From positions 1 through 45,887 of the IMG/VR virus record IMGVR_UViG_3300009285_000018: a stretch of 45,887 nucleotides of DNA; one strand, given 5' to 3'. The DNA is from a virus. This document shows positions 1,351-44,310 of the stretch, in pieces (position 1 is the first letter of the stretch; every line of letters starts with the position of its first letter). The translations under genes were made by a program, and so were the position numbers. The notes below the pieces were generated by a model. It ran no database searches. It saw nothing but the letters and a program-made list of their open reading frames with translations, and was not told where the DNA came from.

Positions 1351-1394
1351 TGTGGATAACTGTGCTTGACAAACAATTCCTAACAGAATATGTT
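1351..1394 (+). promoter_or_regulatory. DnaA-box 9-mer followed by a sigma70-like promoter
   Basis: TGTGGATAA (1351..1359), N6, TTGACA (1366..1371), N17, TATGTT (1389..1394). The next ATG is at 1416. Confidence 0.55.
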
Positions 1395-1415
1395 TGTTAC
1401 ATACACTCTACTGAC

Positions 1416-1868
1416 ATGATAAAACCATTTAAATTCTTCCCTTCGAAGGGGGACGAAAATCAAATAGAATATCTTTACTTAAAAACCGGATGCTCGGATC
1501 CGCATAATTTGGTTAGGCTTCTTTTGGGTCAGGCGTTCACAAACTGGAAAGAACTTGACTTAAAACACCGCGTGAAAAGTTCGGACCGGCTTCAAGCGCG
1601 CGAAGAAAGAATCCAATGGATCCGTAACAGTTCCAATAAAGAATTCACCGCTTGGCTCAAAGAAATCGAATATCTGCCTCCGGACGAACTACAATTCAAC
1701 ACTTCCGCCCAACATGGTAAATACTACTTTTACGACACCGACGCTCAAGGCAAAAGACACTATGTCTGCGAAATCCGGCATGTCGAAACCGGAAAAACCT
1801 CAATGTTCGATAAAATCGAAGACATTGACGCCACCATACGCAAACTTATCAAGAAAAAACTCATATGA
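1416..1868 (+). CDS. hypothetical protein
   Basis: The ORF track gives 1350..1868. I moved the start to the internal ATG (MIKPFKFF...) because the first 66 nt contain the predicted promoter. Confidence 0.55.
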   Translation: MIKPFKFFPSKGDENQIEYLYLKTGCSDPHNLVRLLLGQAFTNWKELDLKHRVKSSDRLQAREERIQWIRNSSNKEFTAWLKEIEYLPPDELQFNTSAQHGKYYFYDTDAQGKRHYVCEIRHVETGKTSMFDKIEDIDATIRKLIKKKLI

Positions 1869-2179
1869 ATAAAAAACTATCCAAAAATCCCATTCCGGCC
1901 ATAAGTGAAATAACACGCTCTGCCGGCGTTCAGGGATTTGTATTCGGCTTCCGGCCGGATGAGCAATCCGTAACCATCCACTTTGAGAATATCTCCATGA
2001 AAGCCGCGTTCTCAATAGTCATAGCCGCGTTCCAGCAATGTATTGCGCTGGAGCTTAAAAACAATCCTCAATATGATTCCCGACAACGCGGAGTTTTTGA
2101 AGATTTATTGCGGGATTTTCGGAATATCGTGGCCACGGCGAACGCCAAGACCGAAACTGTAAATAAAAAGGTCACATAG
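1865..2179 (+). CDS. hypothetical protein
   Basis: 104-aa ORF with an ATGA start/stop overlap with the upstream ORF. Confidence 0.55.
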   Translation: MNKKLSKNPIPAISEITRSAGVQGFVFGFRPDEQSVTIHFENISMKAAFSIVIAAFQQCIALELKNNPQYDSRQRGVFEDLLRDFRNIVATANAKTETVNKKVT

Positions 2180-2228
2180 ATTCTTTAGAATGGAATTAAA
2201 TAAAAGATTTTAACCCCTCAATAAAACT

Positions 2229-2399
2229 ATGAAAAAAGAAAAGATAACTGAAAAAGAAAATATCATCGTCCCCGTAGAATGGCTAAGTGAATTAGTTAGA
2301 CACTCCGAAATTGCCGAAAAAGATAAAAATCACATAATACACTTGATTGGTTTTATTTCATCTGTGAAAACAATTTTGAAATACGGGATTAAAAGATAA
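2229..2399 (+). CDS. hypothetical small protein (56 aa, below the ORF-track cutoff)
   Basis: Translated by hand as MKKEKITEKENIIVPVEWLSELVRHSEIAEKDKNHIIHLIGFISSVKTILKYGIKR. Preceded by motif copy 1. Confidence 0.5.
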   Translation: MKKEKITEKENIIVPVEWLSELVRHSEIAEKDKNHIIHLIGFISSVKTILKYGIKR

Positions 2400-2418
2400 C
2401 TAACCCCTCAATAAAAAT

Positions 2419-2607
2419 ATGGATATGGATAAAGACGGAAAATTAAGCATACAGAATCGTTGGACATTCAGAATTATGAATGAATTTGATTTTAACTTGG
2501 AATCATTGGCAGATGAGATTATTGATTTACGGCAACAGTTAGAAGTCAAAGATAAAGAGATTACAGAAAGAGATAAGGAAGTTGATAGATTAAATGAATT
2601 ACTTTAA
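2419..2607 (+). CDS. hypothetical small protein, coiled-coil-like
   Basis: 62-aa ORF preceded by motif copy 2. Its stop codon lies inside motif copy 3. Confidence 0.55.
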   Translation: MDMDKDGKLSIQNRWTFRIMNEFDFNLESLADEIIDLRQQLEVKDKEITERDKEVDRLNELL

Positions 2608-2622
2608 CCCCTCAATAAAAAT

Positions 2623-2961
2623 ATGAAAAAAGAAACACTTAAAAAAATAGGAACTTGGCTTGTTAGAGGCGACACAGGACAATCTTCTTTGTCTTTGTGC
2701 GCTGTATATCTTGGGACGGACGAAAAATCACTGAATTATCCTTACGATTGGGGTGATTTTAATAGATGCGTGGGTTTTCTTAATCTTTTGACAAGGGAGG
2801 AAGAAAAGTTTGTTTTAAGAAAAGCGGCACTACAAAATGAAAACTGGAAGAAGATATATTCTGAATGGGCTGACTTAATGATTCTATATCAAGAAAAAAA
2901 CGGCTTAGGTCTTGGAGAAAAATTAAATGTAATCAATTTTAACCCCTCAATAAAAATATGA
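2623..2961 (+). CDS. hypothetical protein
   Basis: 112-aa ORF preceded by motif copy 3. Its C-terminus, NFNPSIKI, is encoded by motif copy 4. Confidence 0.6.
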   Translation: MKKETLKKIGTWLVRGDTGQSSLSLCAVYLGTDEKSLNYPYDWGDFNRCVGFLNLLTREEEKFVLRKAALQNENWKKIYSEWADLMILYQEKNGLGLGEKLNVINFNPSIKI

Positions 2962-3182
2962 AGAAAATAAAATTATTGGTTGATCATGGTGAAGCTAAAA
3001 TCGGAGATGTTTTTATTCAAGGCCTATTTGAATCTCCTCGTTATTATAAATTTACCTCCAGAGAAAACTGGTATTGGAAAGAAGGTTCAAAAATAGAAGA
3101 TAATAGTTTTTTGCCGGCAAGTTGTTTTACCGAAGAATTACAAGATAATTTTGAGATTTTAACCCTTTACCCCCCTCAATAA
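2958..3182 (+). CDS. hypothetical protein
   Basis: 74-aa ORF with an ATGA overlap with the upstream ORF. Its C-terminus is encoded by motif copy 5. Confidence 0.55.
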   Translation: MKKIKLLVDHGEAKIGDVFIQGLFESPRYYKFTSRENWYWKEGSKIEDNSFLPASCFTEELQDNFEILTLYPPQ

Positions 3183-3186
3183 AAAC

Positions 3187-3453
3187 ATGAAAAAAGAAAA
3201 CTACAATTCTATTAAAGGTGTGGTTTCTCTGCTTTGGGTATTGGGTTGGCTACTTGCTATCTTCTTTTTTACAAATCAGCAATTCGTTGTATTTGAAATC
3301 AATAAAAAGTACGAAAAACAATATCCCTGTTTTACATCAGTTGATAAAACAAAATGGTGCGGTGGTGGTTCAAAGGCGATAGAGAATCTACTTGATAAAC
3401 TTAATAGGGGTGAGTGGGCTGTAGATTTTATTCCTATCCTAACTCCCCAATAA
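3187..3453 (+). CDS. hypothetical membrane protein
   Basis: 88-aa ORF with a hydrophobic N-terminal segment, VVSLLWVLGWLLAIFFF. Preceded by motif copy 5. Confidence 0.55.
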   Translation: MKKENYNSIKGVVSLLWVLGWLLAIFFFTNQQFVVFEINKKYEKQYPCFTSVDKTKWCGGGSKAIENLLDKLNRGEWAVDFIPILTPQ

Positions 3454-3457
3454 AAAC

Positions 3458-3631: not shown

Positions 3632-3762
3632 AAACATTTTTGGTTTGGCTTTGGGAAAAAATTCTTCTCCTTATCGTCGTCGCCGCTGGCGTCTATTATT
3701 GGTGGTGGATATTCTCAGACGCATTGTTTTGTTCCGGATGGCTGTGCGATACCGGATTCTAA
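3628..3762 (+). CDS. small hydrophobic protein (44 aa)
   Basis: Translated by hand as MKTFLVWLWEKILLLIVVAAGVYYWWWIFSDALFCSGWLCDTGF. ATGA overlap with the upstream ORF. Confidence 0.4.
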   Translation: MKTFLVWLWEKILLLIVVAAGVYYWWWIFSDALFCSGWLCDTGF

Positions 3763-3767
3763 ATTTT

Positions 3768-5550: not shown

Positions 5551-6165
5551 ATGTATATAAACATAAAAGATGAAACTCTTTGCATCACTTTCCCGTATGC
5601 AAAGTCGGTAATTGACGCGCTCCGTACTATTCCGGGTCGCGTTTTTAATCCAAAATTAAAACGATGGGAAGTGCCGGTTGAGAACGGCATTGAATGTTTG
5701 CGCGTTTTGGAGCCGCTTGGTTTCAATGTGCATTTGGACGTAAAAAGACGGGTGGAAGCGCTAAAAAAAGAAATTGAGGAATCTGAAGAACTTAAAATAA
5801 ATCCATCTGTTCCATATTCCGGATCTTTGCCGCTTTACGATTTCCAAAAAATCGGAGCGGCTTTTTTGAAAGCGCGTTCAGCCTCTCTTCTTGCCGACGT
5901 TCCCGGTCTCGGGAAAACAATTCAAACGATTGCGGCGCTGGAAGAAATCTCGGGAATAAAATTGGTGGTATGTCCGGCTTCTTTAAAATTTAGTTGGCAA
6001 AATGAAATAAACAAGTGGAAATCGAACGAAATAATTTTTGTGGTTGATGGTTCAAAAGAAGAACGCATTGAAATTTATAAAAACGCGAAAAGTTGCGGAA
6101 ATGGATACTTAATAATAAATTATGAGCTTCTTTTGCACGATTTTGACATACTTGTTGACTTTTGA
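5551..6165 (+). CDS. SNF2-family helicase, N-terminal fragment (motifs I and Ia)
   Basis: Contains LYDFQ, DVPGLGKTIQTIA and VVCPASL..W. It ends at TGA 6163..6165 just before the point where motif II is expected. Confidence 0.85.
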   Translation: MYINIKDETLCITFPYAKSVIDALRTIPGRVFNPKLKRWEVPVENGIECLRVLEPLGFNVHLDVKRRVEALKKEIEESEELKINPSVPYSGSLPLYDFQKIGAAFLKARSASLLADVPGLGKTIQTIAALEEISGIKLVVCPASLKFSWQNEINKWKSNEIIFVVDGSKEERIEIYKNAKSCGNGYLIINYELLLHDFDILVDF

Positions 6166-6598
6166 TATGCTTGTAGTGTGGCAAAAGCTGGAAGAAAAAA
6201 AGGATCAATCCCGTGGAATAAGGGTTTAAAAGGAATATACCATATTTGGCCCAATGGTCGTCCTCCTATTAGCGAAGAAACACGCAAGAAAATTGGACTC
6301 TCGGGAATTGGGCGAACTCCATGGAATAAGGGGAAGCCTTATTTTGAGATCCGTGGAGACAGAAATCCTAACTGGAAAGGCGGAATTACTGGAGAGGACC
6401 AAACCTTGAGAAGTAGAATTGAATTCAAGAATTGGAGCAAAACAGTATTTAAAATAAACGATAAGAAGTGTGCGAAATGCGGATCTAAAAAGGATTTAGT
6501 TGCGCATCATAAAAAAAGTTTCAAGAAATATGTTTCTTTACGCTATGATTCTTCAAATGGAATTATCGTATGTCGTAAATGTCACATAAAAATTCATC
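6166..6598 (+). mobile_element. Homing-endonuclease insertion that splits the SNF2 helicase gene
   Basis: About 430 nt separate helicase motif Ia/Ib from motif II and consist almost entirely of the HNH ORF. The two flanking helicase reading frames differ by +1. Confidence 0.7.
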
Positions 6599-6642
6599 AT
6601 GTTTGCGGCCATAATAAGCGACGAAAGTACAAGGATTTCTAA
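6178..6642 (+). CDS. HNH homing endonuclease with NUMOD3-like repeats
   Basis: Repeats GSIPWNKG and GRTPWNKG, plus SEETRKKIGLSGIG. HNH core is CAKCGS...LVAHH...NGIIVCRKCHIKIHH. GTG start. It is in frame with the upstream fragment across a single TGA. Confidence 0.85.
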   Translation: MAKAGRKKGSIPWNKGLKGIYHIWPNGRPPISEETRKKIGLSGIGRTPWNKGKPYFEIRGDRNPNWKGGITGEDQTLRSRIEFKNWSKTVFKINDKKCAKCGSKKDLVAHHKKSFKKYVSLRYDSSNGIIVCRKCHIKIHHVCGHNKRRKYKDF

Positions 6643-7627
6643 TCCGTCGGCCAAAACCACTAAATTTTTAAAACAACTTCAAACCAAGAAAAAAATTGCC
6701 CTTACCGGCACGCCAATTTCCAATTCTCCAAATGATCTCTATTCCATCATCGACTGGCTGTCCCCGCGCTTTTTAGGAACTTACTACCAATTTTTGTCGC
6801 GTTATTGTATTACCGACGCGCGCTATCCATCCATGATTCTTGGCTACCAAAATCTTAGTGAACTCAAATGGCGCGTGTCGCGTTTTATTCTCCGACGATC
6901 CAAAGAAGAAGTCTTTACCGACTTTCCGTCAAAAACCATCAGTAATATTGTGTTTGATTTGAGCGAAGAGGAACGCGAACTATACGATAACATCCGGAAT
7001 TTGATTTGGGAGGAACTTGAGGCGCTCACCATAACCAAACAAAGTTTGGCGACTATTCCGGTGAAAATGCTTCGACTTAAACAAGCCACCGATCACCCGG
7101 CGCTGATTTCGGACTTGAAAAAATCCTCCAAAATGGAGACGTTGCAGGAACTTTTGAAAGGCATAGTGGAAAGCGGAGAGAAAGTGATTATTTTTTCCCA
7201 ATTCGCAGAAATGGCCAAAAAGATTTTTGACGAAACTTCGGCCTCGCTCATAATTCATGGCGAAGTTCCATCGGAGAAGCGCCAGCAAATTGTCAACCTT
7301 TTTAATACCGAACCATTTTATCGTGTATTGATAATGACCGAAGCTGGCGCGTACGGCTTAAATTTGCAGGCCGCATCTTACGTAATTCATTACGATTCTC
7401 CATGGTCCGTTGCTAAACTTATGCAACGTGAGGACCGTGCGCACCGTATAGGCCAAACTAAGTCCGTCACTGTTTATAACTTAATTGCGCGAAAAACCAT
7501 TGACGAATACGTGCTGAAAAAATTGCACAAAAAACAAAAACTCGCGGTGGAGCTTTTGCAAGATGTCGAGCGCTTGGAAGCGCAGGGAATTGATGAGGAA
7601 GATATCAAATCAATCCTCCGGATTTAG
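6599..7627 (+). CDS. SNF2-family helicase, C-terminal fragment (motifs II-VI)
   Basis: Contains IISDEST (motif II), LTGTPISNSPNDLYS (motif III) and QREDRAHRIGQTKSVTVYNL (motif VI). This frame opens at 6590, directly after a TAA. Confidence 0.85.
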   Translation: MFAAIISDESTRISNPSAKTTKFLKQLQTKKKIALTGTPISNSPNDLYSIIDWLSPRFLGTYYQFLSRYCITDARYPSMILGYQNLSELKWRVSRFILRRSKEEVFTDFPSKTISNIVFDLSEEERELYDNIRNLIWEELEALTITKQSLATIPVKMLRLKQATDHPALISDLKKSSKMETLQELLKGIVESGEKVIIFSQFAEMAKKIFDETSASLIIHGEVPSEKRQQIVNLFNTEPFYRVLIMTEAGAYGLNLQAASYVIHYDSPWSVAKLMQREDRAHRIGQTKSVTVYNLIARKTIDEYVLKKLHKKQKLAVELLQDVERLEAQGIDEEDIKSILRI

Positions 7628-8910
7628 GCATTTTCAAAAAGTGTTTTAGCATCGATCTCTTCTTCTTTTTCCGCCATCGCAATCTCCTCGTCACTCCATA
7701 TCGGAGAGATTTTCTCGTATTTTCGGATGATCTCCACATACTCCGGATACATGGTCCACCGATCCGCGGCGCCCCCCTCTTCCGTATCTTTGCCTTTCAT
7801 TCGTCTGCATACGCGAAGCATTGAAAGATTTTCAAGATACATACGAATCGGAGTGTTGGGATAACCAAGCGCGTTTGCGATTTCAGTGGTAGATTGCTCG
7901 TCTCTTTTTGCCATCTCAAGAATTACCATCTTATTTGTCTGCGGAATGGAATCCAAAGTAGTTTTGTAAATCATATTGATACTGATTTCGTCCAATTTTC
8001 CGAATTGTAGGGCCAGCGAAAATGCTATTGATTCCAATGCTTGTGCAAGACCGGTTGGAATTTCTGCAGACGGCACGAACATCACTTCGTTACGGTTGCC
8101 GGCGTCCCGGATGACTCCGGAACGGGACTTACAGGCAAAGTCGGAAAGAACAATGAGCTCTTCTGTTTGTGCTTCATTTAGTCCCGGAATTTTTTTCTCC
8201 CAATCGATTCCTTGGATGTAAGCATATACCGCGTCTTTTAACTCGCGCTGCATTACATCCTGTATGGCATTATTTTTCAAGCTCCGGCGCGTGACTTCTT
8301 TTCGGTCCGGCATAATAATTCGGTAATTCAAAAATCGCTCGCCAAGCGTGGTGTGCATTTGTTGCGCTAAATCCACAACTTGCGTAGATGCGGCTATCAG
8401 CCCCACTCTTCCTTCCCAATCCCGAATTTGGCCGTTGCCAAATACTTTTTTGAATGATCCGTCCCAAATTTCCCGAAGTTGTGCCATGATTTCGCGCCGC
8501 GCGTCCTGCTGCATGGAAAGAACGCTGGTCCAATCTTTAAAAAGCATAATTTTATTTCCTAAAAGTGGAAGAAGTGAGGCGTCCCGGCCTCCGGGCATGC
8601 CAGAAAGAAACGATTGCGGAGTGAGAAGTGACATCGGATAAATGTCTCCGAGATCGTACAGCGAATTCAAAAATTCCGTTTTGCCTCCGCGTGAAGGCCC
8701 GATGATTATGCACCACGCCGGTTTCCGGCCTTTTAATCTGATAGTTCCGTATGCGCCCATTAGGAATCGGAGGATGTAGGGATCCACGATAAGAAGCCAT
8801 TTATTAAAAACAGCCTCGAGTTCTGTAAATGAAATCGGCTTCAGCGAGTCAAGGTGGATGCGGAGTTTGGCCGCCGCCTCTTGTTTTGCGAAATCTTCTT
8901 CGGATCGCAT
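7624..8910 (-). CDS. P-loop NTPase, putative replicative helicase or primase-associated ATPase with a C-terminal wHTH
   Basis: Walker A-like GPSRGGKTE and Walker B-like IMLFKDW. It lies directly downstream of the CHC2 zinc-finger gene. Confidence 0.5.
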   Translation of the reverse strand: MRSEEDFAKQEAAAKLRIHLDSLKPISFTELEAVFNKWLLIVDPYILRFLMGAYGTIRLKGRKPAWCIIIGPSRGGKTEFLNSLYDLGDIYPMSLLTPQSFLSGMPGGRDASLLPLLGNKIMLFKDWTSVLSMQQDARREIMAQLREIWDGSFKKVFGNGQIRDWEGRVGLIAASTQVVDLAQQMHTTLGERFLNYRIIMPDRKEVTRRSLKNNAIQDVMQRELKDAVYAYIQGIDWEKKIPGLNEAQTEELIVLSDFACKSRSGVIRDAGNRNEVMFVPSAEIPTGLAQALESIAFSLALQFGKLDEISINMIYKTTLDSIPQTNKMVILEMAKRDEQSTTEIANALGYPNTPIRMYLENLSMLRVCRRMKGKDTEEGGAADRWTMYPEYVEIIRKYEKISPIWSDEEIAMAEKEEEIDAKTLFENA

Positions 8911-8914: not shown

Positions 8915-9613
8915 TTATTTCAAAAATTTTACCGCCTCAATAAAATTTAGATTATGCAGTTTGCATATAAAATCTATAACATCTCCGCCTTCTCCGCATG
9001 CGCCGAAACAATACCATCTATTGTCTGGGTAGATTTTCAAAGACGGAGTTTTTTCATTATGGAAAGTACAGACCACGAATCCAGCGGGATTAGGTTTCAC
9101 AAAATCTGTGATTGGATGCGTTTTGGCAAGCGCAATATCGGCGTCCGTAATATCTCCGGACGCGACTCCTTTGCGTTTCCACTCATCTATCCGCAGTAAA
9201 TGTTCAAGCACCATGATCTGTTTTTTAATTTTTTTGAGTGGCAAATAATAGAATTGATCTTTGCAGATGTTGATCCAAAATTTCTGGTCCCTTTCTGAAA
9301 GCGTTTCGTCTCTATATAGTCCATTAAGGAACATATCAAACAGTTTTTCCAGTCCCTGTTCCAGTATTTTGTACGAATCATGCAGTTCACGCTTTTTCCT
9401 CCGAATGATTGGCAACGCTTCTGGAAAAATTTCAAGTAGTTCGGAGGGTGGAGGGTTTCTATACTCATACTCCGCTCTTTGCTGGGTTATTTCCAGCCAC
9501 TCCGTTTCGCTCGGACAATTTGTTAGCGGAAGATTGTGGCGAAGCCACGCGTTTTGAAAACGTAGATATCCGGGGGCCGGTATCGGAAAGTTATCCACAG
9601 AAGAGATTTGCAT
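8915..9613 (-). CDS. CHC2 zinc-finger (DnaG-primase-type) protein
   Basis: The C-terminal CTFHNEKTPSLKIYPDNRWYCFGACGEGGDVIDFICKL matches the zf-CHC2 pattern CxH...CxxC. Confidence 0.7.
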   Translation of the reverse strand: MQISSVDNFPIPAPGYLRFQNAWLRHNLPLTNCPSETEWLEITQQRAEYEYRNPPPSELLEIFPEALPIIRRKKRELHDSYKILEQGLEKLFDMFLNGLYRDETLSERDQKFWINICKDQFYYLPLKKIKKQIMVLEHLLRIDEWKRKGVASGDITDADIALAKTHPITDFVKPNPAGFVVCTFHNEKTPSLKIYPDNRWYCFGACGEGGDVIDFICKLHNLNFIEAVKFLK

Positions 9614-9665
9614 GGTCCAATTATACTATGGTAAAATGATGGTATCAAATCAGTATTGTGGATAA
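9614..9665 (-). promoter_or_regulatory. DnaA-box plus TAGTATAAT promoter for the primase/ATPase operon
   Basis: Read on the minus strand: TTATCCACA (9665..9657), N28, TAGTATAAT (9628..9620), N6, ATG (9613). Confidence 0.6.
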
Positions 9666-9677
9666 GTGGTTAATACT

Positions 9678-9848
9678 ATGATTCCTAATAAAGACAAAAA
9701 GGCTATTTTATACAAGAAAATCAAGGATTTGCACAAGCTCGGATGGAGTATGGATGAAATCGTAGAATTGCTTTCCGTTTCCAAGTCAACGGTCTTTTTT
9801 GCAATTAGTGGTCGAGCAAAAAGGAAATTAAAAATTAAAAAGAAATAA
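9678..9848 (+). CDS. small HTH DNA-binding protein
   Basis: The segment GWSMDEIVELLSVSKSTVFFAISG resembles an HTH. The C-terminus is basic. I used the ATG at 9678 rather than the GTG at 9666. Confidence 0.55.
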   Translation: MIPNKDKKAILYKKIKDLHKLGWSMDEIVELLSVSKSTVFFAISGRAKRKLKIKKK

Positions 9849-12933: not shown

Positions 12934-13167
12934 ATGGAACTCGAAAACATCCAAAAACCGCGTCTTTATTCGACGAGAGAGGTCGCCAAATTCATGGAGA
13001 TAGGGTATTATACCCTTTTTCGTATGTTGCGAGCCAAAAAAATTAAAGCCATAAATGTAGCCCGATCCGGCACAAAGCCGCTTTATCGGTTCAGCGCGGT
13101 GGATGTGCAGGAGTATTATGATACGCTACCTCGTACCAATTTCAAGTTGGAAGACGTCCACAAATAA
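12934..13167 (+). CDS. excisionase/MerR-like HTH (HTH_17-type) DNA-binding protein
   Basis: The segment LYSTREVAKFMEIGYYTLFRMLRAKKIKAI fits the Xis-type HTH pattern. Confidence 0.6.
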   Translation: MELENIQKPRLYSTREVAKFMEIGYYTLFRMLRAKKIKAINVARSGTKPLYRFSAVDVQEYYDTLPRTNFKLEDVHK

Positions 13168-15288: not shown

Positions 15289-15340
15289 ATGAATATATTA
15301 TACCACAACTTGAACATTTTACCTTGTTGGTTGTGGATAA
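15289..15340 (-). promoter_or_regulatory. DnaA-box plus extended -10 promoter of the lysis cassette
   Basis: Read on the minus strand: TTATCCACA (15340..15332), N26, TGGTATAAT (15305..15297), N8, ATG (15288). Confidence 0.6.
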
Positions 15341-20062: not shown

Positions 20063-20077
20063 AAGTATATTATATCA
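20063..20077 (-). promoter_or_regulatory. extended -10 promoter, TGATATAAT
   Basis: Read on the minus strand: TGATATAAT (20077..20069), N6, ATG (20062). The TGA stop of the upstream gene forms the TGn of the element. Confidence 0.5.
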
Positions 20078-25037: not shown

Positions 25038-25055
25038 AGTAATTGTATTATATCA
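25038..25055 (-). promoter_or_regulatory. extended -10 promoter, TGATATAAT
   Basis: Read on the minus strand: TGATATAAT (25055..25047), N9, ATG (25037). It shares the 12-mer CGTGATATAATA with the promoter at 20069..20080. Confidence 0.5.
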
Positions 25056-26148
25056 CGGTTCTTTTTACTCGCGCAAGGGCTGTCCTTGCGAGAATTTGAG
25101 AATACACTTCAAAGATTTTTTGAGCATTGTCTTGAATCCAGTGTTTTGAAATCCATTCTTTATTGTGTCGCGCCATCTCCCTCCGTTTGTTCGGATGATC
25201 CACAAGTTCTATAAGCATATTATACCACTCTTCATAAGTATTCGCCAAAAGCGCATGAACCCCGTTATCCACAGCCTCCTTGTAGGGTATCACGTTTGAC
25301 GCCACAATCGGTATCTGAGCCGCCGCGTATTCCTTGATTTTAAGGTCTGATTTACAGTTCCCGAATGAATTATTGATAACCGGCGCCACCGCTATATCCC
25401 ATCCTTTGGAACAAAGCACTTGTGGATAAATTTCAATCGGTTCTCCGGGATCATTCCGCAACTCACCCTCGAATCCACAGGCCGGACAAACTTGATTTAG
25501 TACATTCAAATTAAATACTCCTCCAAGTTCCTGATGCGTCATCCCCATTGTTTCAAACCGGATATTCGGTTTGCGCTCTTTCACAATTCGCTCGATGACT
25601 TTTGAAATCATCTTTAAGTCGTCCGCATGCGCATTGCCACCCATCCAACCAATTCTAATTTTTCCATCGGCTGGCTTGATTATCGGATTGTCCCATAAAT
25701 CTTTATTTAGATAGTTCGGCACAACGTAAATGAACGGATTGTATGGAAAATATTCACGGGCGAGTTGCGGAGTGGAAACCGTGACGCCGGCCGCGACTTT
25801 CGTCATCTCCATCGCGCGATGCACATAAAGCGTTCCCGGATTCCACGCCGGAAATCCCCAAACATTTCGTGGAGATACATGATGCACAAAATCATCAATT
25901 TCAGTAATGAAAGGAATTTTATGGAATAAAAGTTTGTGTAATATTTTTGTGGCATTTTCGCTTCCCATCTCCTGCATCACCACAAGATCCGCGGCATTTA
26001 ACTGGTCATCAGTCGGCATTTGCATAACAATTTCGGTTTCAGCAAGACCCATACGTTTAATAAAAGTTGCTGGTTGCTTACAGCGGAAGTAGCCACATCC
26101 GCCGTCATCTCGAACTACATATAAAATTTTAGGAATTTTATTCGTCAT
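25048..26148 (-). CDS. GT-B fold glycosyltransferase (family 1/4-like)
   Basis: C-terminal IPIVASNVIPYKEAVDNGVHALL resembles the GT4 E-x7-E region. Length is 366 aa. Confidence 0.6.
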   Translation of the reverse strand: MTNKIPKILYVVRDDGGCGYFRCKQPATFIKRMGLAETEIVMQMPTDDQLNAADLVVMQEMGSENATKILHKLLFHKIPFITEIDDFVHHVSPRNVWGFPAWNPGTLYVHRAMEMTKVAAGVTVSTPQLAREYFPYNPFIYVVPNYLNKDLWDNPIIKPADGKIRIGWMGGNAHADDLKMISKVIERIVKERKPNIRFETMGMTHQELGGVFNLNVLNQVCPACGFEGELRNDPGEPIEIYPQVLCSKGWDIAVAPVINNSFGNCKSDLKIKEYAAAQIPIVASNVIPYKEAVDNGVHALLANTYEEWYNMLIELVDHPNKRREMARHNKEWISKHWIQDNAQKIFEVYSQILARTALARVKRTVI

Positions 26149-29204: not shown

Positions 29205-30371
29205 TTACGGCTTAAGATTAAAATGATAAGCGGCTGCGTCTCCATTACGGACCTCCATCGTGTATTCACCAACGATCTGCCAATCATTCGAGTCGCCGGT
29301 CTTCCCCAATTTTTCAAGGAAGAAAGCGCGACCTTTCAAAGGCATGATTTTCACCTTTGAAGAATCAAATACTACCGCAACATCGTTCGGCACCCAGCGG
29401 TCAACAATAACTTTCAAGTTGATTCCAAGGTCCGAAACAAACTCTTCTACGGTATAGCCCGCACGTCGAGAATCAAGAGTAGTGCGTCGAAATTCTGAAT
29501 CAAAAGCGGAAATTTTCTGCTTCTGCACGCCTCCCACAAGAATAGTGTCCGGCATAAGCCCGTCATCCCAACAGTTCTTAATCATTGTGTTCAAAACCGA
29601 GGGGATAAGAGTTTCTGCGGTACCACTGTTGTTGTTCGTGGAAGGAATAAATCCTACGAACTCGATTAGCCCGCCCATGTTGTTGTAAACGGTAGCACTT
29701 ACGTCTCCGATACGAACACCCATGATTGCGGTGCGATCAAGTTCCCTTTTGAGTTCACGAAGACGAAGATCAATTTGGTAATCGTCTTCCGATGAAATTC
29801 CGGCATGATCAATCGAGGACGCGGTGCCGGTAACTTTCACACCTTTCGAGAAAATCTGCGTGAAGTTATGAACCAATGATCGAGTTGTCGATTCATCTGC
29901 CGGACCCGCCATGCCCTGCGGACGAGGATGCGCGATTATTTCCCACGTAGCGCCCGCCCCATGAGTTTGAGCCGAAGTACCTCCGGCTCCTCGATTTACA
30001 GTACATGAAGTGCTGGAGACAGCTGTAACTTGGACCACTTCTGTTTTTCCTGAAAGTTTGTTTTTCAGCAAAGTACCCGCCGTGATCTTGGAACGAGTAA
30101 TATGAGACGAAGACAAACGAAGAACAGTTCCGGTGGTGTTCCCGAGCGCCATCTGCGCTGCGGTGCCTCCGGACTGAACTGCGGTTGTCGCGTTCAGCGC
30201 GTCTTCTACCCAAGAATGCTTAGTCTGTGTTGCGACTTCGTTCGAGATACCCATCATCGATACGAAATCTGTGTCATCCAAAAGGATGGCAGCCAAAACC
30301 TCCGAGAGGTCCAACTTATAGACTGCACTTTGGTCAAACGACGCGGCTTGGGTTGGATCTGCTAATGCCAT
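29205..30371 (-). CDS. major capsid protein candidate
   Basis: 388-aa ORF directly downstream of the scaffold-like gene and followed by a strong hairpin. The call rests on size and position only. Confidence 0.6.
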   Translation of the reverse strand: MALADPTQAASFDQSAVYKLDLSEVLAAILLDDTDFVSMMGISNEVATQTKHSWVEDALNATTAVQSGGTAAQMALGNTTGTVLRLSSSHITRSKITAGTLLKNKLSGKTEVVQVTAVSSTSCTVNRGAGGTSAQTHGAGATWEIIAHPRPQGMAGPADESTTRSLVHNFTQIFSKGVKVTGTASSIDHAGISSEDDYQIDLRLRELKRELDRTAIMGVRIGDVSATVYNNMGGLIEFVGFIPSTNNNSGTAETLIPSVLNTMIKNCWDDGLMPDTILVGGVQKQKISAFDSEFRRTTLDSRRAGYTVEEFVSDLGINLKVIVDRWVPNDVAVVFDSSKVKIMPLKGRAFFLEKLGKTGDSNDWQIVGEYTMEVRNGDAAAYHFNLKP

Positions 30372-31110: not shown

Positions 31111-31167
31111 ATGTGCTTTTATTATACCACGTTTTATAAACAAGCGCAGACAAGCGCCTGTGGATAA
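31111..31167 (-). promoter_or_regulatory. DnaA-box plus extended -10 promoter of the scaffold/capsid operon
   Basis: Read on the minus strand: TTATCCACA (31167..31159), N29, TGGTATAAT (31129..31121), N10, ATG (31110). Confidence 0.6.
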
Positions 31168-38809: not shown

Positions 38810-38814
38810 AAAAT

Positions 38815-40515
38815 TTAACGATTAGGAACTGGAGCCGCCCCGGCCGCTTGCTGATTTTGCGCCGCCACCGCTCCAGATTGTGAAGCCGCCGGCGCGTTAC
38901 CGGGCGCGGGAGATGGAGCCTCACCGGGTTGGTTTTGACCCTCTTGCAAGCGCGGCAAAAGCGCTGGCTGGCGCGCGACTTGCGGACCCAAAATCGGATC
39001 GGACAAATCTTTTTTCATCAATTTCTTTTCCAGATGCGGCTGTTGCACTCCGACTTCGCGCATAGCCGTATCCTGTGAGATCAAACCGCTTTGGAATTTA
39101 TTTATGGTATCCACAATCTGTCGGATAAGAGTGGATGGTATGTAAACTTTATTGCGGTAATCTCCGTTGATTATTTTTTTGGTTTCCGGATAGTAAAGTT
39201 CGTAAAGTTTTAAAATATTGCGATTAAGCGCGGTCAGGGCCGCGCGATACTGCTTGGATCTCGGATTCAATTTCCGTATCGTGCCTTGAAACGCTAAAGC
39301 GAGCGCCCGGCCGGAAGCGTTGGCAACTTGCGAGGAAGAGAGAAGAGCTTCGGATACGCCGGAGATTTCAATAATTGCATTGCGGCGCGACTTGGCGTAA
39401 GTGTCGGTGATGTATGGATCGCCGGTTTTTTCAAACGCATGAAGTTCCCCGTCTTCCGGCACGGAATAAATCCGCGAAAGTCCGGCAACAAGCGCTTGCA
39501 TGCCTTCCACGTTTTTCCCCCAAAGGTTGACCGATGAAATCCATTTCAATAAATTCGCTAAATCATTATTGGTGCGATTATGCGACATCTGCGGATCAAG
39601 CACGTCTTCAAGATCAGATTTGCCGAATGGATGATTTGGCGTATAAGTATTTTTTACATGAAGCAGCGGAACAAATCCCCAGTTGTGAAAATAATAATCA
39701 AGCAATTTATCGTTTATAAAAATCGCAAAAATCTTGTCAGTCCAGTATTCCTCAATATCCACCATCGGCTGATTAGTGTCCGGATCGGAACGGCCAAGAT
39801 TAGAAGTTTTTATGGATGCCTCGATTGTAACTCCTTTGGCGCGCGCCGCCTTGCCATAAAGCATATTGGCTTTGGTCCATGAAATTCTTGAAGAATCAAT
39901 AAATCCCAAAAGCCGCTTGAATCCGCCATCGGCAAAAATCGGACGAATGGCTCCGGGATTTTCCACGTGCGCAAAGCGGATGCGCCATTGGCCGGCCGCG
40001 TCCGGAGATACCGGATTGCCGTCATCATCCACTTTTTCCATCCATGGCCCCTTAAGAAATCCGTCGCCGTAAAGCGATCCGCCCTTGGACCACGCGTCGA
40101 ACTCAACCTCAAAATCATTGTCTTCCCAAACCTTCAAAACCAATTTTTCCTTGAGTTCGGCTTTTATTTCCAAAAGTTCATCGGTCGGATCATCAGTTGG
40201 ACAATTCACTTCCGGAGGATCGTCGAAAACAAGAGACGAAATGTTATCCACAATCACCGCGCAATAATTGTCCGTGCGCTGGGACGCGCCCGGAGGTTCG
40301 TTTTGCGACCAATGGTCGCCCCGGTAAAAACGCTCAAGAAACGTGTATCCGGCAAACTGATAGCCAGTGGCGCCGGCTTTGGCCGCCACGCCCGATACAC
40401 GCGCAGTCAAATCGTGTTTAGTGTCGTCTTTGTGTCCGATAAATTCCTTATTCAGCTCAAACTCAAATTTGAGCCGTTCCGCATCCGTAGTAAATTCTTT
40501 TTTTGAGAGTGGCAT
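38815..40515 (-). CDS. portal protein candidate
   Basis: About 566-aa ORF immediately downstream of the large terminase, with a P/A/Q-rich C-terminal tail. I used the ATG at 40515; the track start at 40521 is a TTG. Confidence 0.65.
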   Translation of the reverse strand: MPLSKKEFTTDAERLKFEFELNKEFIGHKDDTKHDLTARVSGVAAKAGATGYQFAGYTFLERFYRGDHWSQNEPPGASQRTDNYCAVIVDNISSLVFDDPPEVNCPTDDPTDELLEIKAELKEKLVLKVWEDNDFEVEFDAWSKGGSLYGDGFLKGPWMEKVDDDGNPVSPDAAGQWRIRFAHVENPGAIRPIFADGGFKRLLGFIDSSRISWTKANMLYGKAARAKGVTIEASIKTSNLGRSDPDTNQPMVDIEEYWTDKIFAIFINDKLLDYYFHNWGFVPLLHVKNTYTPNHPFGKSDLEDVLDPQMSHNRTNNDLANLLKWISSVNLWGKNVEGMQALVAGLSRIYSVPEDGELHAFEKTGDPYITDTYAKSRRNAIIEISGVSEALLSSSQVANASGRALALAFQGTIRKLNPRSKQYRAALTALNRNILKLYELYYPETKKIINGDYRNKVYIPSTLIRQIVDTINKFQSGLISQDTAMREVGVQQPHLEKKLMKKDLSDPILGPQVARQPALLPRLQEGQNQPGEAPSPAPGNAPAASQSGAVAAQNQQAAGAAPVPNR

Positions 40516-40569
40516 AGTCAATTATATTATACTACCAAATCCGCTTCTCTGGTATATCGATTATCCTCA
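40516..40569 (-). promoter_or_regulatory. TAGTATAAT promoter of the portal gene, with an 8/9 DnaA-box-like site in inverted orientation
   Basis: Read on the minus strand: TAGTATAAT (40534..40526), N10, ATG (40515). The terL TAG stop is part of the element. TTATCCTCA lies on the plus strand at 40561..40569, 26 nt upstream of the promoter element. Confidence 0.45.
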
Positions 40570-43354
40570 CAGGCACTTTTTGCCCGCTTTTCTGCGCAAA
40601 TATATCCTCCACCCGATTGGCAAATGGATTAAAGTCAAATCTCGTAACCGTGTTTTTAAACATTTTCCGCTCCAAGTACCATATCCCCATTCCCAAACAC
40701 ATCACGTCATCCTGTTCCAATTTTTTGTCCGTTATGCCTTTTTCCGGATTGTACTGGTAATTTCCCATCTGCTCTTCCAGCTGCGTAATGTGATACCCGC
40801 GAATTGCGCCGAATTCCGGATTCAGTTCAATAACTTTATTTTCCGGATCGAGTTCGGTTTTGCGATTGCGCGTCATGGCCATCAATAAACAAAAAAGCAT
40901 ATCCGCCTTGTCGCCGCCGGCATTAAAATCCAAAACATCCGTCATCCCCATTTCTACCAGCATCTTTTTTATAATCACCCCGCCCATGGCGCCCGAATCG
41001 TGCAGAAATTTCGCGCCGTTCCATTCCCGCTGCAGCATACGCGCCCGAGCCAGCACCGCGAATGGACTGCCGCCCCGAATTTCTTCCCGAAAAGAAATCC
41101 GCACTTTCCGCAAATGCTTCGGAACTTTTTCATTCAAACATTCCGTATAATCCAAAACGTAAAAAACAGTCGGATCTCCGGTGTCGGCAAATCCCCAGTC
41201 GCCAATCACTAAATACTTATGTTCATACTTCGGCATTTCCGGCACATCCGCATCCCATATGCGCTCAATCAAAATTGAATCAAACATTTTTTTGCCGGTA
41301 GTCACGAACTCGCCGAACATCACCTGCCGGTACTTGGCCGGATCGGTGGATCGAATCTGCGCCGCAATCCGGTCACGTTCGACTGGACCCAAAAATATAT
41401 TGTCCGAAATTTTTCCCAAAAGCGTCCACCATCCCTCCTCGCCCTTCAAGCCCAATTTCGAAATATGAAAAAAATATTGGTGCGACGGCTTATCCACTTC
41501 CGGAGTGGAAACCAAATCCAGCGGCCCGCCAAAGTCAATTAGCCGCGACATGATCTTTGCCGGCAATTCCTGCTTCAAGTGCAGCGAGTTGCCGCTCCAC
41601 GCCACTCTTCCGTTCCTACGGACCATTAGTGTATGATTTTTTTCCAAAGCAAGACACGCAATGTTCCCCGAGTAAAAAACCTTTTTTACGGAAGCATGAG
41701 CAGTATTTTTAGGATGATGGTTGATACGCGGAAACTGTCCACGTTTTCTGAACTGAATCCGATAAAAATCCAGTGAACCTTTTATTTTTCTCCCCTTAAT
41801 AAAACCTCCCGATCCTCCTCTGTCCGCTTTCAAAGACGGGACGAGGCCAATACGCAAACAAAGCTCCATCACATCATCGGCAAGGCCCTTGCTTGTCGTG
41901 CCGTATATACCGCAACCCTTTCCACTTTTCTTATATGAACCGTCACCGAGAATCAGTCCGTCAAAAAGAAGCCGGAGCAAACGCGGAGAAAGGTTTAGCG
42001 TCTCTCGCGGAATTCTTTTGTTTTCAGCAAGACATGGAACAAAATACTTAATAAATTCCGCGAGTTGTTTGTCAAAAACATGATATCCGACTTTGTTGTT
42101 TAAACTCCAAGAAAACCCCATCGAATCAAGCAGTTTTGGAATCACATAAAATGCCTTTCCTTTTTCAGTTTGTGAAATTGTGATTCGACCTTTCCACACC
42201 GAACCTTCCGAAATGTAAAGCCCGAGAAAAAGCAGAAAATCTTCAACTACAACTTTGCGTTCTCCACGAACATATAGTCCACTTCCGGACATCTTATTTC
42301 TATACGCGGGAATCATAAAATAAGCCGATTCACGACCGGTTGCCGTAAAAGACTGGTTCAACTTAAACTGTTTTCCGATAAGGTTCCCCGCTTCCTCAAA
42401 AGCAAACGATCCATATTGATTTGCCCCTTTGCTTTTTGCAACCAGCATCTTATGGTTCGGGGTAACAAGAAGGTCCGTAAACTGTTGTTTCTCTCCTCCG
42501 AACTGGATCATGTCGCCTTCGTACGGCTCGTTAATAACACTCTTCACTTTAACTTTTTCCACCAATCCGGTTTCAATATTTATTGACGGAACCAATTCGC
42601 CGATAGCAACATTATAAAATTTCTTCCAACCAAGATCAGTAAGAACTTCCGTGTCGTCGCTATAACATTGCGCGCACTCATCATATGAAATATACAAATA
42701 CGGAGTCCCGGCAAGCGACGAGGCCTGATCTTCTCCGGTGGGAACCGCCTTATACGAAGTCCCGTTCTTAAAAAAAATCTGCCGTTTTTGAACACTGTCC
42801 GAAACATAGAAATCCGGGATGATACATTTATTATTTATCGTGTTCCCGGCAATCGTAGAGATGAGTTTCGACGCCAAAATATCCACAATATAATCAAATC
42901 CGGCTTGCGCCTGATTAGAGTGCGGACTTAAATTCAGCGTGCCGCAGCGGATTGCGGCCCATTCTTTGCCTTTGGCGCGGACTCCAACCTTATAATAATT
43001 GTACCAAACATGTTTTACCGAAGTGACAAGCGTTTTACCCCAACGGTTTGACGGCACCAGAATATTTTTTGAAAAATCCGGATTACGCGCCAACAGCTCA
43101 TCAAACTCTCCGCGCGATTTCCATGTTCCAAGCAAAGCCCCCAGATCGTACGCTTGCTCGGATTGAGTGCGCGTTGTCATCCAAAGCCATAATTTCTGCC
43201 CGTCGTGCAATTTCACACCCAAAAGATTTTCCGCAAAAAATACCGGATCCTTTTTTCCGGCACGCACCTTGTCTAAAAACTCGCGTTGCTCCGGCGTCAA
43301 ATCCGCAAGCAATGCTTCACGGCTCATTTTTTCTATATTAGTATGATTCCCCAT
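40532..43354 (-). CDS. terL: terminase large subunit interrupted by an intein
   Basis: Contains a Walker A-like RWGKT, Walker B LYISYDE, the STP motif after the intein, and nuclease-domain acidic motifs (VIGDWGFADTGDPTVFYVLD). The protein is 940 aa in total, or 580 aa without the intein. Confidence 0.85.
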   Translation of the reverse strand: MGNHTNIEKMSREALLADLTPEQREFLDKVRAGKKDPVFFAENLLGVKLHDGQKLWLWMTTRTQSEQAYDLGALLGTWKSRGEFDELLARNPDFSKNILVPSNRWGKTLVTSVKHVWYNYYKVGVRAKGKEWAAIRCGTLNLSPHSNQAQAGFDYIVDILASKLISTIAGNTINNKCIIPDFYVSDSVQKRQIFFKNGTSYKAVPTGEDQASSLAGTPYLYISYDECAQCYSDDTEVLTDLGWKKFYNVAIGELVPSINIETGLVEKVKVKSVINEPYEGDMIQFGGEKQQFTDLLVTPNHKMLVAKSKGANQYGSFAFEEAGNLIGKQFKLNQSFTATGRESAYFMIPAYRNKMSGSGLYVRGERKVVVEDFLLFLGLYISEGSVWKGRITISQTEKGKAFYVIPKLLDSMGFSWSLNNKVGYHVFDKQLAEFIKYFVPCLAENKRIPRETLNLSPRLLRLLFDGLILGDGSYKKSGKGCGIYGTTSKGLADDVMELCLRIGLVPSLKADRGGSGGFIKGRKIKGSLDFYRIQFRKRGQFPRINHHPKNTAHASVKKVFYSGNIACLALEKNHTLMVRRNGRVAWSGNSLHLKQELPAKIMSRLIDFGGPLDLVSTPEVDKPSHQYFFHISKLGLKGEEGWWTLLGKISDNIFLGPVERDRIAAQIRSTDPAKYRQVMFGEFVTTGKKMFDSILIERIWDADVPEMPKYEHKYLVIGDWGFADTGDPTVFYVLDYTECLNEKVPKHLRKVRISFREEIRGGSPFAVLARARMLQREWNGAKFLHDSGAMGGVIIKKMLVEMGMTDVLDFNAGGDKADMLFCLLMAMTRNRKTELDPENKVIELNPEFGAIRGYHITQLEEQMGNYQYNPEKGITDKKLEQDDVMCLGMGIWYLERKMFKNTVTRFDFNPFANRVEDIFAQKSGQKVPVRIIDIPEKRIW
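41588..42667 (-). mobile_element. 360-aa intein with a LAGLIDADG homing-endonuclease domain inside terL
   Basis: It starts with CYSDDTEVLT (residue 230), straight after the Walker B segment DECAQ. Block B is LVTPNHKMLV. The two LAGLIDADG-type motifs are LFLGLYISEGSV and LLFDGLILGDGSY. It ends with VAWSGN, followed by Ser as the +1 residue. Confidence 0.8.
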
Positions 43355-43369
43355 GGTTCGACAAAAAAT

Positions 43370-43897
43370 TTATTCTACGGTAGCGGCATCTTGAAACGCA
43401 TGTTCGAATTTCGCTTGCTCACGCGAATCTTCACGCACTTTTCCTAAAGCATGAATTCGGGAGTCTTGGGATTTCATGGCTTTGAAAATCGAATCAGACA
43501 TAATTCGCTGCTCGTAAGCGGTCAGCGAATTCGGATCGTTGCGATACTTCGTCATTAAATCTTCATAAAACTTCGCGCCCAAATTCAATGCGTAAGAAAT
43601 TCCGCGCTGCGTAGCCTCTTGATTGGAAACAATATTTCCGGTAAGACGAGTTTCTTGTTCTGTTGACGGAGTCAAAGAACCCGCGGCGCGTATCCGGATG
43701 AGTCCGGCGGCGGTTTTGGTCCTTTGAAGATATGAAAACCAAGAACTCGCACTATACCCGGGGACAAGTGGTACAATTTCTTCGCGAAAAAACTTGGCGG
43801 CATTTACTTTTCCGTCATGCTCGAGTAAGTTGTTATACTTTTCGAGGATACGGACGTAGTGTATGCTGGAAGTGAATTTTGAATTCCAACGTCTCAT
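43370..43897 (-). CDS. small terminase subunit candidate (position only)
   Basis: About 175-aa ORF directly upstream of terL. The start is placed at 43897 because TGGTATAAT lies inside the longer track ORF. Confidence 0.35.
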   Translation of the reverse strand: MRRWNSKFTSSIHYVRILEKYNNLLEHDGKVNAAKFFREEIVPLVPGYSASSWFSYLQRTKTAAGLIRIRAAGSLTPSTEQETRLTGNIVSNQEATQRGISYALNLGAKFYEDLMTKYRNDPNSLTAYEQRIMSDSIFKAMKSQDSRIHALGKVREDSREQAKFEHAFQDAATVE

Positions 43898-43945
43898 GCG
43901 TATATTATACCATAATGCCACCAAAAACATATACCCTGTGCATAA
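43898..43945 (-). promoter_or_regulatory. DnaA-box variant plus extended -10 promoter of the packaging/late operon
   Basis: Read on the minus strand: TTATGCACA (43945..43937), N24, TGGTATAAT (43912..43904), N6, ATG (43897). Confidence 0.55.
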
Positions 43946-44236
43946 ACCACTTGCATAGATTGATTTTTTTTGCTAAAATTTATGCAGAAAAAGGTCTTTA
44001 AAAATAAATTTTTGACCGAGGGCAAATCCTCTATACTTCTTGACTTACAAAATAAGTGGTAGCACTACCACTAAACGTAAAATGAAAACTACATTAAAAA
44101 AAACTAAAAATAAATAATGAAACTGATTTATAGCGGGGGGCGCGGGCGGGGCGCACGGAAAAAACAGGACATTAAAAAAACACACCGGCGGGCGGGTTTT
44201 TTTGTTACAATAAAAAAAGAATAAGTCAATAGCAAC

Positions 44237-44310
44237 TGTGGATAAGAGGGTTTGCAATATGTTGCAAGATATAATACTATAGAGATATGAAAGGTCGTGG
44301 GTGTGGATAA
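44237..44310 (+). promoter_or_regulatory. Two direct DnaA-box 9-mers flanking a plus-strand early promoter and a TTGCAA-TATG-TTGCAA dyad
   Basis: TGTGGATAA (44237..44245), N6, TTGCAA (44252..44257). TATAAT is at 44270..44275 and TACTAT at 44275..44280. A second TGTGGATAA is at 44302..44310. The next ATG is at 44330. Confidence 0.55.

Follow-up and report, generated by a model that had tools for sequence, protein, structure and literature searches.

DnaA is the one DNA-binding regulator found in almost every bacterium, and its level reports readiness for replication. Beyond replication, DnaA is an established activator, repressor and roadblock whose effect at bacterial promoters depends on position, activating, repressing or blocking elongation, and it stimulates the phage lambda promoter pR (PMC8203912; PMC11317965). 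A full-text literature search returned reports on lambda pR and on the T5 injection-stop (iss) region, and no promoter-linked, genome-wide set of DnaA boxes in a phage. The analysis described here concerns the canonical DnaA box, TTATCCACA, in a virus genome from groundwater, IMG/VR record IMGVR_UViG_3300009285_000018 (positions 1 to 45,887; the whole stretch is called the window). At the level of sequence there is good support for a cis-regulon that is linked to promoters and whose element is identical to the DnaA box, because the enrichment withstands its statistical nulls and the positions are conserved in relatives. On balance we lean towards the reading that these 9-mers are high-affinity sites for the host DnaA at the heads of transcription units, where host DnaA would act as a transcription factor and possibly as an origin binder.

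Promoters regulated by DnaA in bacteria, such as E. coli dnaA, nrdAB, mioC, guaB and uvrB and those of the B. subtilis and Caulobacter regulons, likewise have the consensus 9-mer in or near the promoter. Unlike these, the phage has boxes at nearly every head-of-unit promoter, mostly single, at about -47, without a -35 element and upstream of predicted leaderless mRNAs, at about 30 times the density in E. coli. E. coli DnaA prefers double boxes, whereas the phage boxes are mostly single. The window resembles lambda pR and ori-lambda in that host DnaA modulates transcription that drives phage replication genes (PMC8203912). However, lambda has one such promoter with weak downstream sites and a contact to the RNA polymerase beta subunit, whereas the window has consensus boxes genome-wide, upstream of replication, lysis, capsid and packaging promoters. 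The T5 iss region is alike in having consensus or near-consensus boxes in non-coding DNA across a phage group (bioRxiv 10.1101/866236). There, eight boxes stand in pairs spaced by 3 bp within inverted repeats belonging to the terminal repeat; they have no link to promoters, and their proposed role is to arrest the entry of DNA. The window boxes are dispersed and single, and pairs 3 bp apart occur only in some relatives (L086, L131). The window has no long terminal repeat; its 77-bp overlap is an assembly circle. Clusters such as datA and those of B. subtilis place several boxes in one short locus; the phage boxes are dispersed instead. Compared with known systems, what appears to be new is the combination of perfect boxes throughout a phage genome, their conservation in a family and their fixed positions upstream of putative leaderless-type promoters.

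The first-pass annotation had listed ten perfect copies of the 9-mer and estimated about 0.35 by chance. All ten exact copies are present at the coordinates and on the strands it gave, with both strands represented, and dinucleotide-preserving shuffles (n=100) returned the same mean of 0.35 copies and never more than 2. As a second null, an order-3 Markov model expects 0.64. With up to one mismatch allowed there are 31 sites against 10 expected, including TTATGCACA at 43937..43945, the variant of the TTATNCACA class that had been reported there. According to the curated map of open reading frames (ORFs), 5.7% of the 45,810-bp unit is non-coding, and six of the ten exact boxes are fully intergenic, as had been claimed (binomial p = 6e-6). 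Exact boxes occur in five of the 15 non-coding gaps of at least 40 nt, and all five gaps contain a head-of-unit promoter. The other strongly enriched words all derive from a 66-bp tandem repeat in a tail gene (20271-20926), so TTATCCACA is the top dispersed word. The boxes are spread out, one occurring every 4.6 kb or so and no stretch of 400 bp holding more than 2-3, and the ten copies have no common bases outside the 9-mer.

The boxed promoters of the window share one layout: the box, N24-29 (N being any nucleotide), an extended -10 element (TnGTATAAT), N6-10 and ATG. Four of them, all on the minus strand, had been proposed to have this single architecture, and each was verified base by base. 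The variant box TTATGCACA (43937..43945) is followed by N24, TGGTATAAT (43904-43912), N6 and ATG at 43897, the start of the small terminase (TerS)/packaging unit. A perfect box at 31159..31167, 4 nt past the upstream stop codon, is followed by N29, TGGTATAAT (31121-31129), N10 and ATG at 31110, which begins the scaffold and major capsid unit. The perfect box of the lysis cassette (15332..15340) lies 1 nt past the upstream stop and is followed by N26, TGGTATAAT (15297-15305), N8 and ATG at 15288; an M23 peptidase is encoded downstream. The fourth, a perfect box at 9657..9665, is followed by N28, TAGTATAAT (9620-9628), N6 and ATG at 9613, the first gene of the operon for the primase and an MCM-like helicase. 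On the plus strand, a perfect box at 9591..9599 lies in the first codons of the primase gene, N29 upstream of TGGTAAAAT (9629-9637, plus strand), and this promoter is a fifth member of the layout. The two extended -10 elements stand back to back on opposite strands (9620..9637), with TAGTATAAT driving the primase and TGGTAAAAT facing a small helix-turn-helix (HTH) gene (9666-9848). Because 9591 lies N29 upstream of TGGTAAAAT, the inverted box pair 9591/9657, 57 bp apart, brackets two divergent promoters.

At the early promoters the box is reversed, reading TGTGGATAA on the plus strand, and the 6-nt distance noted earlier between it and a downstream -35-like hexamer is exact at both sites. The first perfect box (1351..1359, minus strand) precedes a sigma-70-type promoter, TTGACA-N17-TATGTT (1366..1394, plus strand), in the arrangement TGTGGATAA-ctgtgc-TTGACA-N17-TATGTT; the gene start is at 1416, with an ATG in frame with ORF 1350-1868. 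The second (44237..44245, minus strand) precedes the main early rightward promoter, TTGCAA-N17-TACTAT (44252..44280, plus strand), which overlaps the palindrome TTGCAAtatgTTGCAA (44252-44267), and the site reads TGTGGATAA-gagggt-TTGCAA-N17-TACTAT. A third perfect box (44302..44310, minus strand) has the same orientation as that at 44237, 65 bp away, and lies at about +16 to +24 of the early promoter, 19 nt before the first early ATG at 44330. Taking the -10 hexamer as -12 to -7, the forward boxes lie at about -53 to -40 and the reversed boxes of both early promoters at -51 to -43, which matches the distance of the forward boxes. The idea that the box is a core promoter element read by a sigma factor was rejected, given its presence in both orientations at one distance and its variable spacing. 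The remaining three perfect boxes are intragenic and have no obvious promoter link: 25265..25273 (plus strand) and 25421..25429 (minus strand), an inverted pair 147 bp apart within a glycosyltransferase gene (25048-26148), and 40244..40252 (plus strand), which encodes an invariant I-V-D-N motif of the portal protein. A relaxed box, TTTTCCACA, is found at 45558..45566 (plus strand) within a 325-bp non-coding gap (45336-45660).

Almost no gene of the window has a Shine-Dalgarno sequence. The motif TnnTATAAT, 6-10 nt and ATG occurs at nine places, with TnnTATAAT sites at 43904-43912, 40526-40534, 31121-31129, 25047-25055, 20069-20077, 15297-15305 and 9620-9628. Four of the nine head a unit, and these four are the boxed ones. 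Because the extended -10 element stands only 6-10 nt before the ATG, the mRNAs from these promoters are predicted to be leaderless or nearly so, and this would be standard for the phage family. The distant relative L012 has a clear AGGAGG.

The relatives set consists of 100 loci from related contigs (L001-L100), and from these sequences a non-redundant 794-kb family set was prepared, with shared 21-mers removed and the window included. The exact box occurs 85 times in this set against 8.6 expected (p = 1e-53). With the window left out, it also ranks first for enrichment among all 9-mers of about 600 kb of relatives (53 versus 5.65, p = 7e-33), and the 9-mers ranked next in that scan are one-base shifts of TTATCCACA. 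The enrichment thus survives composition-matched nulls both in the window and across the family. Several relatives have 2-6 boxes per 20 kb, and the trait is recurrent and frequent in the family, not universal. When distinct exact boxes with a strict extended -10 element within 61 nt were counted in the family, 11 forward and 7 reverse cases were found against about 1.3 expected for each (18 versus about 2.6), and the distances from box to -10 cluster at 10-14 and 25-33 nt.

Although intergenic DNA is unalignable between lineages, diverged relatives keep boxes at their scaffold, primase, lysis and TerS promoters, which bears out the positional conservation that a regulon would entail. At the scaffold promoter, at least 12 lineages have a box or a variant directly after the preceding stop codon. 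The site is exact in the window, L034, L035, L037, L071 and L044, and the variants are TTATACACA (L001, L029), TTATGCACA (L027), TTTTCCACA (L026), TTATCCCCA (L030), TTATCCCCT (L028) and TTATAAACA (L002); the box is missing there in the most distant lineages. Primase promoters have an inverted pair in at least seven lineages, variant boxes included, with spacings of 64 bp in L099, 63 in L083, 55 in L087 and 75 in L097 (with TTATGCACA), and with pairs of variant boxes in L100 and L098. The box-N29-TGGTAAAAT layout of 9591 recurs in L030 at 7613. The lysis promoter of L100, at 3124, reads TTTTCCACA-N26-TGGTATAAT-N8-ATGagcataggccc, with spacing identical to that of the window. At the TerS promoter there is an exact box at N22 in L032, TTTTGCACA in L081 and box-like elements in either orientation in many lineages, and the extended -10/ATG motif precedes TerS in almost all of 30 lineages. 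The TerS promoter region of L006 (about 6100-6210), a close relative without exact boxes, has a direct repeat of ttCCAATTCCAAA, which may be the site of a different regulator.

Among the early promoters, the box-N6-TTGACA layout of 1351 is kept in the close relative L033 at 3005, where the other flank has diverged, and the 44237 box is kept in L033 at 6270 and in L020 at 5317, with flanking gTTG..TTGACT. Box 44302 is not kept in L033. Direct pairs 53-66 bp apart are found in the early regions of L019, L069, L056, L075 and L086. As to the intragenic boxes, no box is present at the homologous place of the glycosyltransferase in L001 or L002, and the portal box 40244 is common, at the homologous position, to L033 (portal 100% identical) and to the more distant L049 and L082. 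Because this portal position recurs in relatives and encodes an invariant motif, 40244 may be partly a by-product of conserved codons.

Similar arrangements occur outside the family. A scan of all IMG/VR for box-N22-30-TGGTATAAT returned at least 118 matches, of which about a third are one repeated sequence. Among the matches listed, about 34 large (80-150 kb) contigs (L103-L219; IMG/VR 3300045988 and others) share an identical TTATCCACA-N29-TGGTATAAT, and this stretch probably belongs to a segment conserved within an unrelated phage group. Several unrelated contigs among the listed matches have a box 4-10 nt upstream of a TTGACA -35 element. Since the matches include unrelated contigs, promoters linked to DnaA boxes may be more common in phages than is recognised. 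In L086 (3690-3710, 6530-6550) and in L131, an unrelated IMG/VR contig, two or three boxes separated by 2-3 bp stand shortly before a TTGACA -35 element, which is the double-box layout preferred by E. coli DnaA and used in T5.

The identity of the box points to host DnaA. Over 86 distinct family sites the flanks favour A at -2 (74%), G at -1 (55%) and G at +1 (52%), and the resulting 12-mer consensus, AGTTATCCACAG, equals E. coli oriC box R4, cagAGTTATCCACAGtag, at 12 of 12 positions and is almost the same as R1, which reads GTTATCCACAG; R4 and R1 were read from the MG1655 sequence. Among the variants at homologous sites, roughly two in three differ from the box only at position 5 or by T in place of A3, which fits the relaxed consensus TT(A/T)TNCACA as quoted in bioRxiv 10.1101/866236. 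Whether host DnaA or a phage protein of the same specificity binds the boxes had been left as alternatives by the first-pass annotation; the R4 identity favours the host protein. Host DnaA would be the most economical binder and is favoured because AGTTATCCACAG equals oriC R4, because Pfam scans (25 of 51 families listed in one batch scan) and tblastn detected no protein like DnaA domain IV in the window and because the early genes are not shared among box-bearing relatives in the available DNA.

Several observations weigh against regulation by host DnaA. The closest relatives in IMG/VR (L001/L006, L002/L004 and L026) have 0 or 1 exact boxes, and single-mismatch variants are only 1-2.8-fold enriched genome-wide in the 794-kb set, with no clear positional pattern. 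The spacing between box and -10 varies from 24-29 nt in the window and from 12-34 nt in the family, and the evidence for helical phasing (about 10 bp) is weak (Rayleigh p ~0.02, n=11). In E. coli, 13 of 32 consensus single boxes were occupied by chromatin immunoprecipitation sequencing and double boxes 2-3 bp apart are preferred (PMC11317965), and in the family double boxes are not enriched, a partner with 7 or more of 9 matches at offset -12 being present at 3 of the 86 sites. The clues to the host amount to a single portal homologue in a Parcubacteria metagenome-assembled genome and to sources in 0.1-um groundwater fractions. The direction in which DnaA would regulate the boxed promoters is a guess. 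The regulon proposed by the first-pass annotation therefore stands in part, in that the boxes are promoter-linked and conserved in sequence, and is weakened by the closest relatives with few or no exact boxes.

It is conceivable, if improbable, that a protein encoded by the phage binds the 9-mer, either a regulator of late genes or an origin binder that converged on the specificity of DnaA, and that host DnaA is irrelevant or outcompeted. Most phage proteins here are without annotation, and the box trait is patchy among relatives, as if tied to an accessory gene. However, the 12 of 12 identity to oriC R4 would then be coincidence or mimicry. Pfam scans of the window proteins gave neither Bac_DnaA nor Bac_DnaA_C among the matches listed (25 of 51 families in one batch scan), and tblastn with E. 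coli and B. subtilis domain IV sequences gave a best E-value of 0.84, with no protein like DnaA domain IV in the window. The weak HTH gene of 60 aa (9666-9848) adjoins box 9657, and a second candidate, an HTH_17 protein, is encoded at 12934-13167, yet neither of these nor any other early gene near the control region is common to the box-bearing relatives for which DNA is available. The family-wide 428-aa protein (7624-8910) has a conserved C-terminal winged helix, is the only AAA+ protein of the window with such a helix and is family-specific, having no sequence match in Pfam, PHROG or PDB. Its AlphaFold model (predicted local distance difference test 87) is closest in Foldseek to eukaryotic and archaeal MCM subunits, and the winged helix of MCM is not a sequence reader. 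In addition, its putative recognition helix differs between the clade of the window and L087/L089 while the box is identical, and L086 has 6 boxes and no 428-aa homologue within 10 kb of its helicase. As judged by its model, the protein is a replicative helicase partner of the primase and not a DnaA-type initiator. The proposal that this winged-helix ATPase reads the box was accordingly downgraded, on the MCM-like model and on the recognition helix that differs between clades with the same box.

A role in replication, to which we likewise assign a low probability, would make the box pairs DnaA-dependent origins that load the MCM-like helicase of the phage or the host DnaB, while single boxes soak up DnaA and their closeness to promoters reflects the scarcity of non-coding DNA. 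P1 oriR, pSC101, F and RK2 are DnaA-dependent origins with boxes. Beyond what the first-pass annotation had described, the phage boxes also form conserved pairs that look origin-like: with spacings of 53-75 bp, they flank the primase promoters and the early control region, and in several lineages they enclose AT-rich gaps. High-affinity boxes at oriC similarly stand at the edges of a 40-100-bp gap or AT-rich stretch (PMC4451416). However, origins of plasmids, phages and oriC also need a Rep protein with iterons, or low-affinity arrays with a DNA-unwinding element, whereas the gaps between the paired boxes of the window hold promoters. No initiator or DNA polymerase of the phage was recognised among the window genes, and boxes are about 30-fold denser than in E. 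coli (10 per 45.8 kb versus 32 per 4.6 Mb; PMC11317965), both of which would suit a role in replication. The cumulative GC-skew minimum falls at the control region (43.5-45.8 kb), but the skew merely tracks the direction of transcription. Scarcity of non-coding DNA does not account for single boxes that keep a set distance and orientation to the extended -10 element far above chance, at homologous promoters across lineages, nor for the restriction of exact boxes to the five gaps with a head-of-unit promoter. A replication role is compatible with one in transcription, and the two are not mutually exclusive.

The boxes could instead be orientation-specific, DnaA-dependent roadblocks that insulate units from upstream read-through, as at the asnC terminator of E. 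coli, but this seems very unlikely as their function. Blocking of RNA polymerase by DnaA in an orientation-dependent manner was described by Schaefer and Messer in 1988 and 1989, as cited in PMC10950094, and is also covered in PMC11317965. The asnC site, as PMC10950094 presents it, is alike in having a single box at a gene end with an orientation-dependent effect on RNA polymerase. In every lineage the scaffold and lysis boxes are 0-5 nt from the upstream stop and read TTATCCACA in the direction of transcription, and no intrinsic terminator was noticed at these junctions, the terminator scan having covered 43300-45887 only. In contrast, asnC is a host locus beside oriC, whereas the phage box is always coupled to a downstream promoter, also where nothing reads in: the same layout occurs without co-directional upstream transcription at TerS (43937), at both boxes of the primase pair and at the reversed boxes 1351 and 44237. 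Roles in replication and titration and a role as roadblock can coexist with regulation of transcription by host DnaA. Finally, a statistical, compositional or coding artefact is already refuted, for although part of the count could ride on the conserved codons of the IVDN motif at 40244, none of the 100 shuffles reaches 3 copies, the Markov expectation remains below one, the box is the top 9-mer in independent relatives and 60% of the copies lie in the small non-coding fraction.

If host DnaA is the binder, a mechanism can be proposed. At extended -10 promoters without a -35, the centre of the single box lies about 47 nt before the start point, which would allow bound DnaA to touch RNA polymerase and tune initiation. 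With less confidence, DnaA at about -47 may help RNA polymerase at the late promoters, which lack a -35, and transcription from the early promoter may be damped by roadblock or looping through the upstream box and its partner at +16 to +24. The latter arrangement resembles the repressor/roadblock layout at dnaA (PMC8203912). Such a circuit would read the amount of free DnaA. Since some ten strong sites would come with each new phage genome, free DnaA would be titrated step by step as replication proceeds, giving a copy-number-dependent timing switch and a starved host origin. Titration by the total number of box copies is possible. One box pair may also serve as a DnaA-dependent origin, because the phage encodes a primase and an MCM-like helicase and no recognisable initiator or DNA polymerase. 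A more far-reaching proposal, which we offer tentatively and consider rather unlikely, is that host DnaA is the master clock of a groundwater phage family without a transcription factor of its own, possibly in Parcubacteria of the candidate phyla radiation (CPR). When the phage enters, DnaA would occupy about ten perfect boxes, hold back the early promoter and license the phage origin and the late promoters without a -35, and its titration by the growing number of genomes would flip the programme and shut off initiation in the host.

The window is a closed circular genome of 45,810 bp, as indicated by the recurrence of its first 77 bases at its end (bases 1-77 are identical to 45811-45887). 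Its recognised gene content is that of a tailed phage. Leftward from 43897, the late genes extend to about 14061, and the early genes extend rightward from about 44330 across the junction to about 13859, and the primase operon (9613-7624) is embedded within the early region in the opposite direction. Genes recognised include an SU10-type major capsid protein (29205-30371), the portal (38815-40521), the large terminase (40532-43354, minus strand, 940 aa), a DnaG-type primase (8915-9613, minus strand; Zn_ribbon_DnaG matches, with Toprim domains in the L099 orthologue) and the MCM-like AAA+ helicase (7624-8910, minus strand), whose 428 aa end in the C-terminal winged helix of the predicted structure. 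Tail genes, the M23 peptidase of the lysis cassette, an exonuclease, RusA, sugar-modifying enzymes and methyltransferases were also recognised. No tRNAs or Rfam families were found in the window. The large terminase has a LAGLIDADG_3 match at aa 461-515; it is 576-594 aa long in relatives versus 940 aa in the window, and L033 shares the insertion, which is probably an intein or a homing-endonuclease insertion. An SNF2 helicase is split into halves at 5551-6165 and 6599-7627 (plus strand) by an HNH/NUMOD3 endonuclease ORF (6178-6642). The gene is intact in L097, L099 and L100 as a single gene of 543-552 aa, and in L098 it is split at a similar place by another ORF (PDDEXK).

Several other features of the genome were noted. 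The 66-bp (22-codon) repeat at 20271-20926 is present in about ten copies within a tail-region gene of 580 aa (20075-21817), and part of the array is 100% identical. An early protein of 185 aa (352-909, plus strand) is CxxC-rich, with at least four zinc-ribbon-like motifs and no family match; it is kept in L027/L036, L033 and L052 and may bind nucleic acid. Five small tandem genes lie at 2180-3453 (plus strand; 2229, 2419, 2623, 2958 and 3187), with a near-identical 19-nt ttaacccctcaataaaaat before the ATG of each. These repeats could be a translation or transcription signal, or the mark of a recently duplicated cassette. In the early control region, the palindrome TTGCAAnnnnTTGCAA overlapping the -35 of the main early promoter (44252-44267) is kept beside the box in L003/L034 (about 2040) and L033 (about 6240), and has the look of an operator bound by a separate, dimeric regulator. 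A mini-ORF of seven codons (44287-44310, plus strand; ATG AAA GGT CGT GGG TGT GGA TAA) would start at the predicted early transcription start, and its TAA belongs to box 44302. Between the TerS and early promoters, about 290 bp of non-coding DNA (43946-44236) alternates AT-rich runs with G- or C-rich blocks like cccgcccgccgg and is partly kept in L033; its role could be that of an origin or a packaging site, or it could encode a small RNA. It has no Rfam match, and a terminator scan of 43300-45887 gave matches not above those of shuffles.

The phage belongs to a large uncultured family. Portal and helicase homologues number more than 130, many members of the family, as defined by the portal, are on contigs of 43-46 kb, and GC content across these phages ranges from 32% to 52%. 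The sources are Rifle and Hainich groundwater, including 0.1-um filter fractions, and Parcubacteria is the sole organism name among ten NCBI portal clusters. When 36 kb of the window were compared with 50,697 GenBank phages by megablast, no match was obtained, and single-protein locus searches with TerS, the 428-aa protein and the protein at 19211-20062 gave none. A portal profile had no match in 185,579 representative genomes and therefore yielded no prophage and no host name.

Because the boxes are perfect and conserved, the idea that host DnaA binds them is directly testable with DnaA from any model bacterium, TTCTGGACA being the mutated counterpart of the box TTATCCACA. If it is true, the promoters for phage replication, capsid, packaging and lysis are wired to DnaA, so that a virus could sense the physiology of its host by simple, portable means and with no regulators of its own, and amplification of the sites would provide a mechanism for early-to-late timing. 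The cis-signature AGTTATCCACAG at about -47 of promoters for leaderless mRNAs would then be usable to annotate uncultured phages. Should host DnaA also serve as the master clock of this family, the family would provide the first example of a regulon that spans a whole virus and is run by the bacterial replication initiator.

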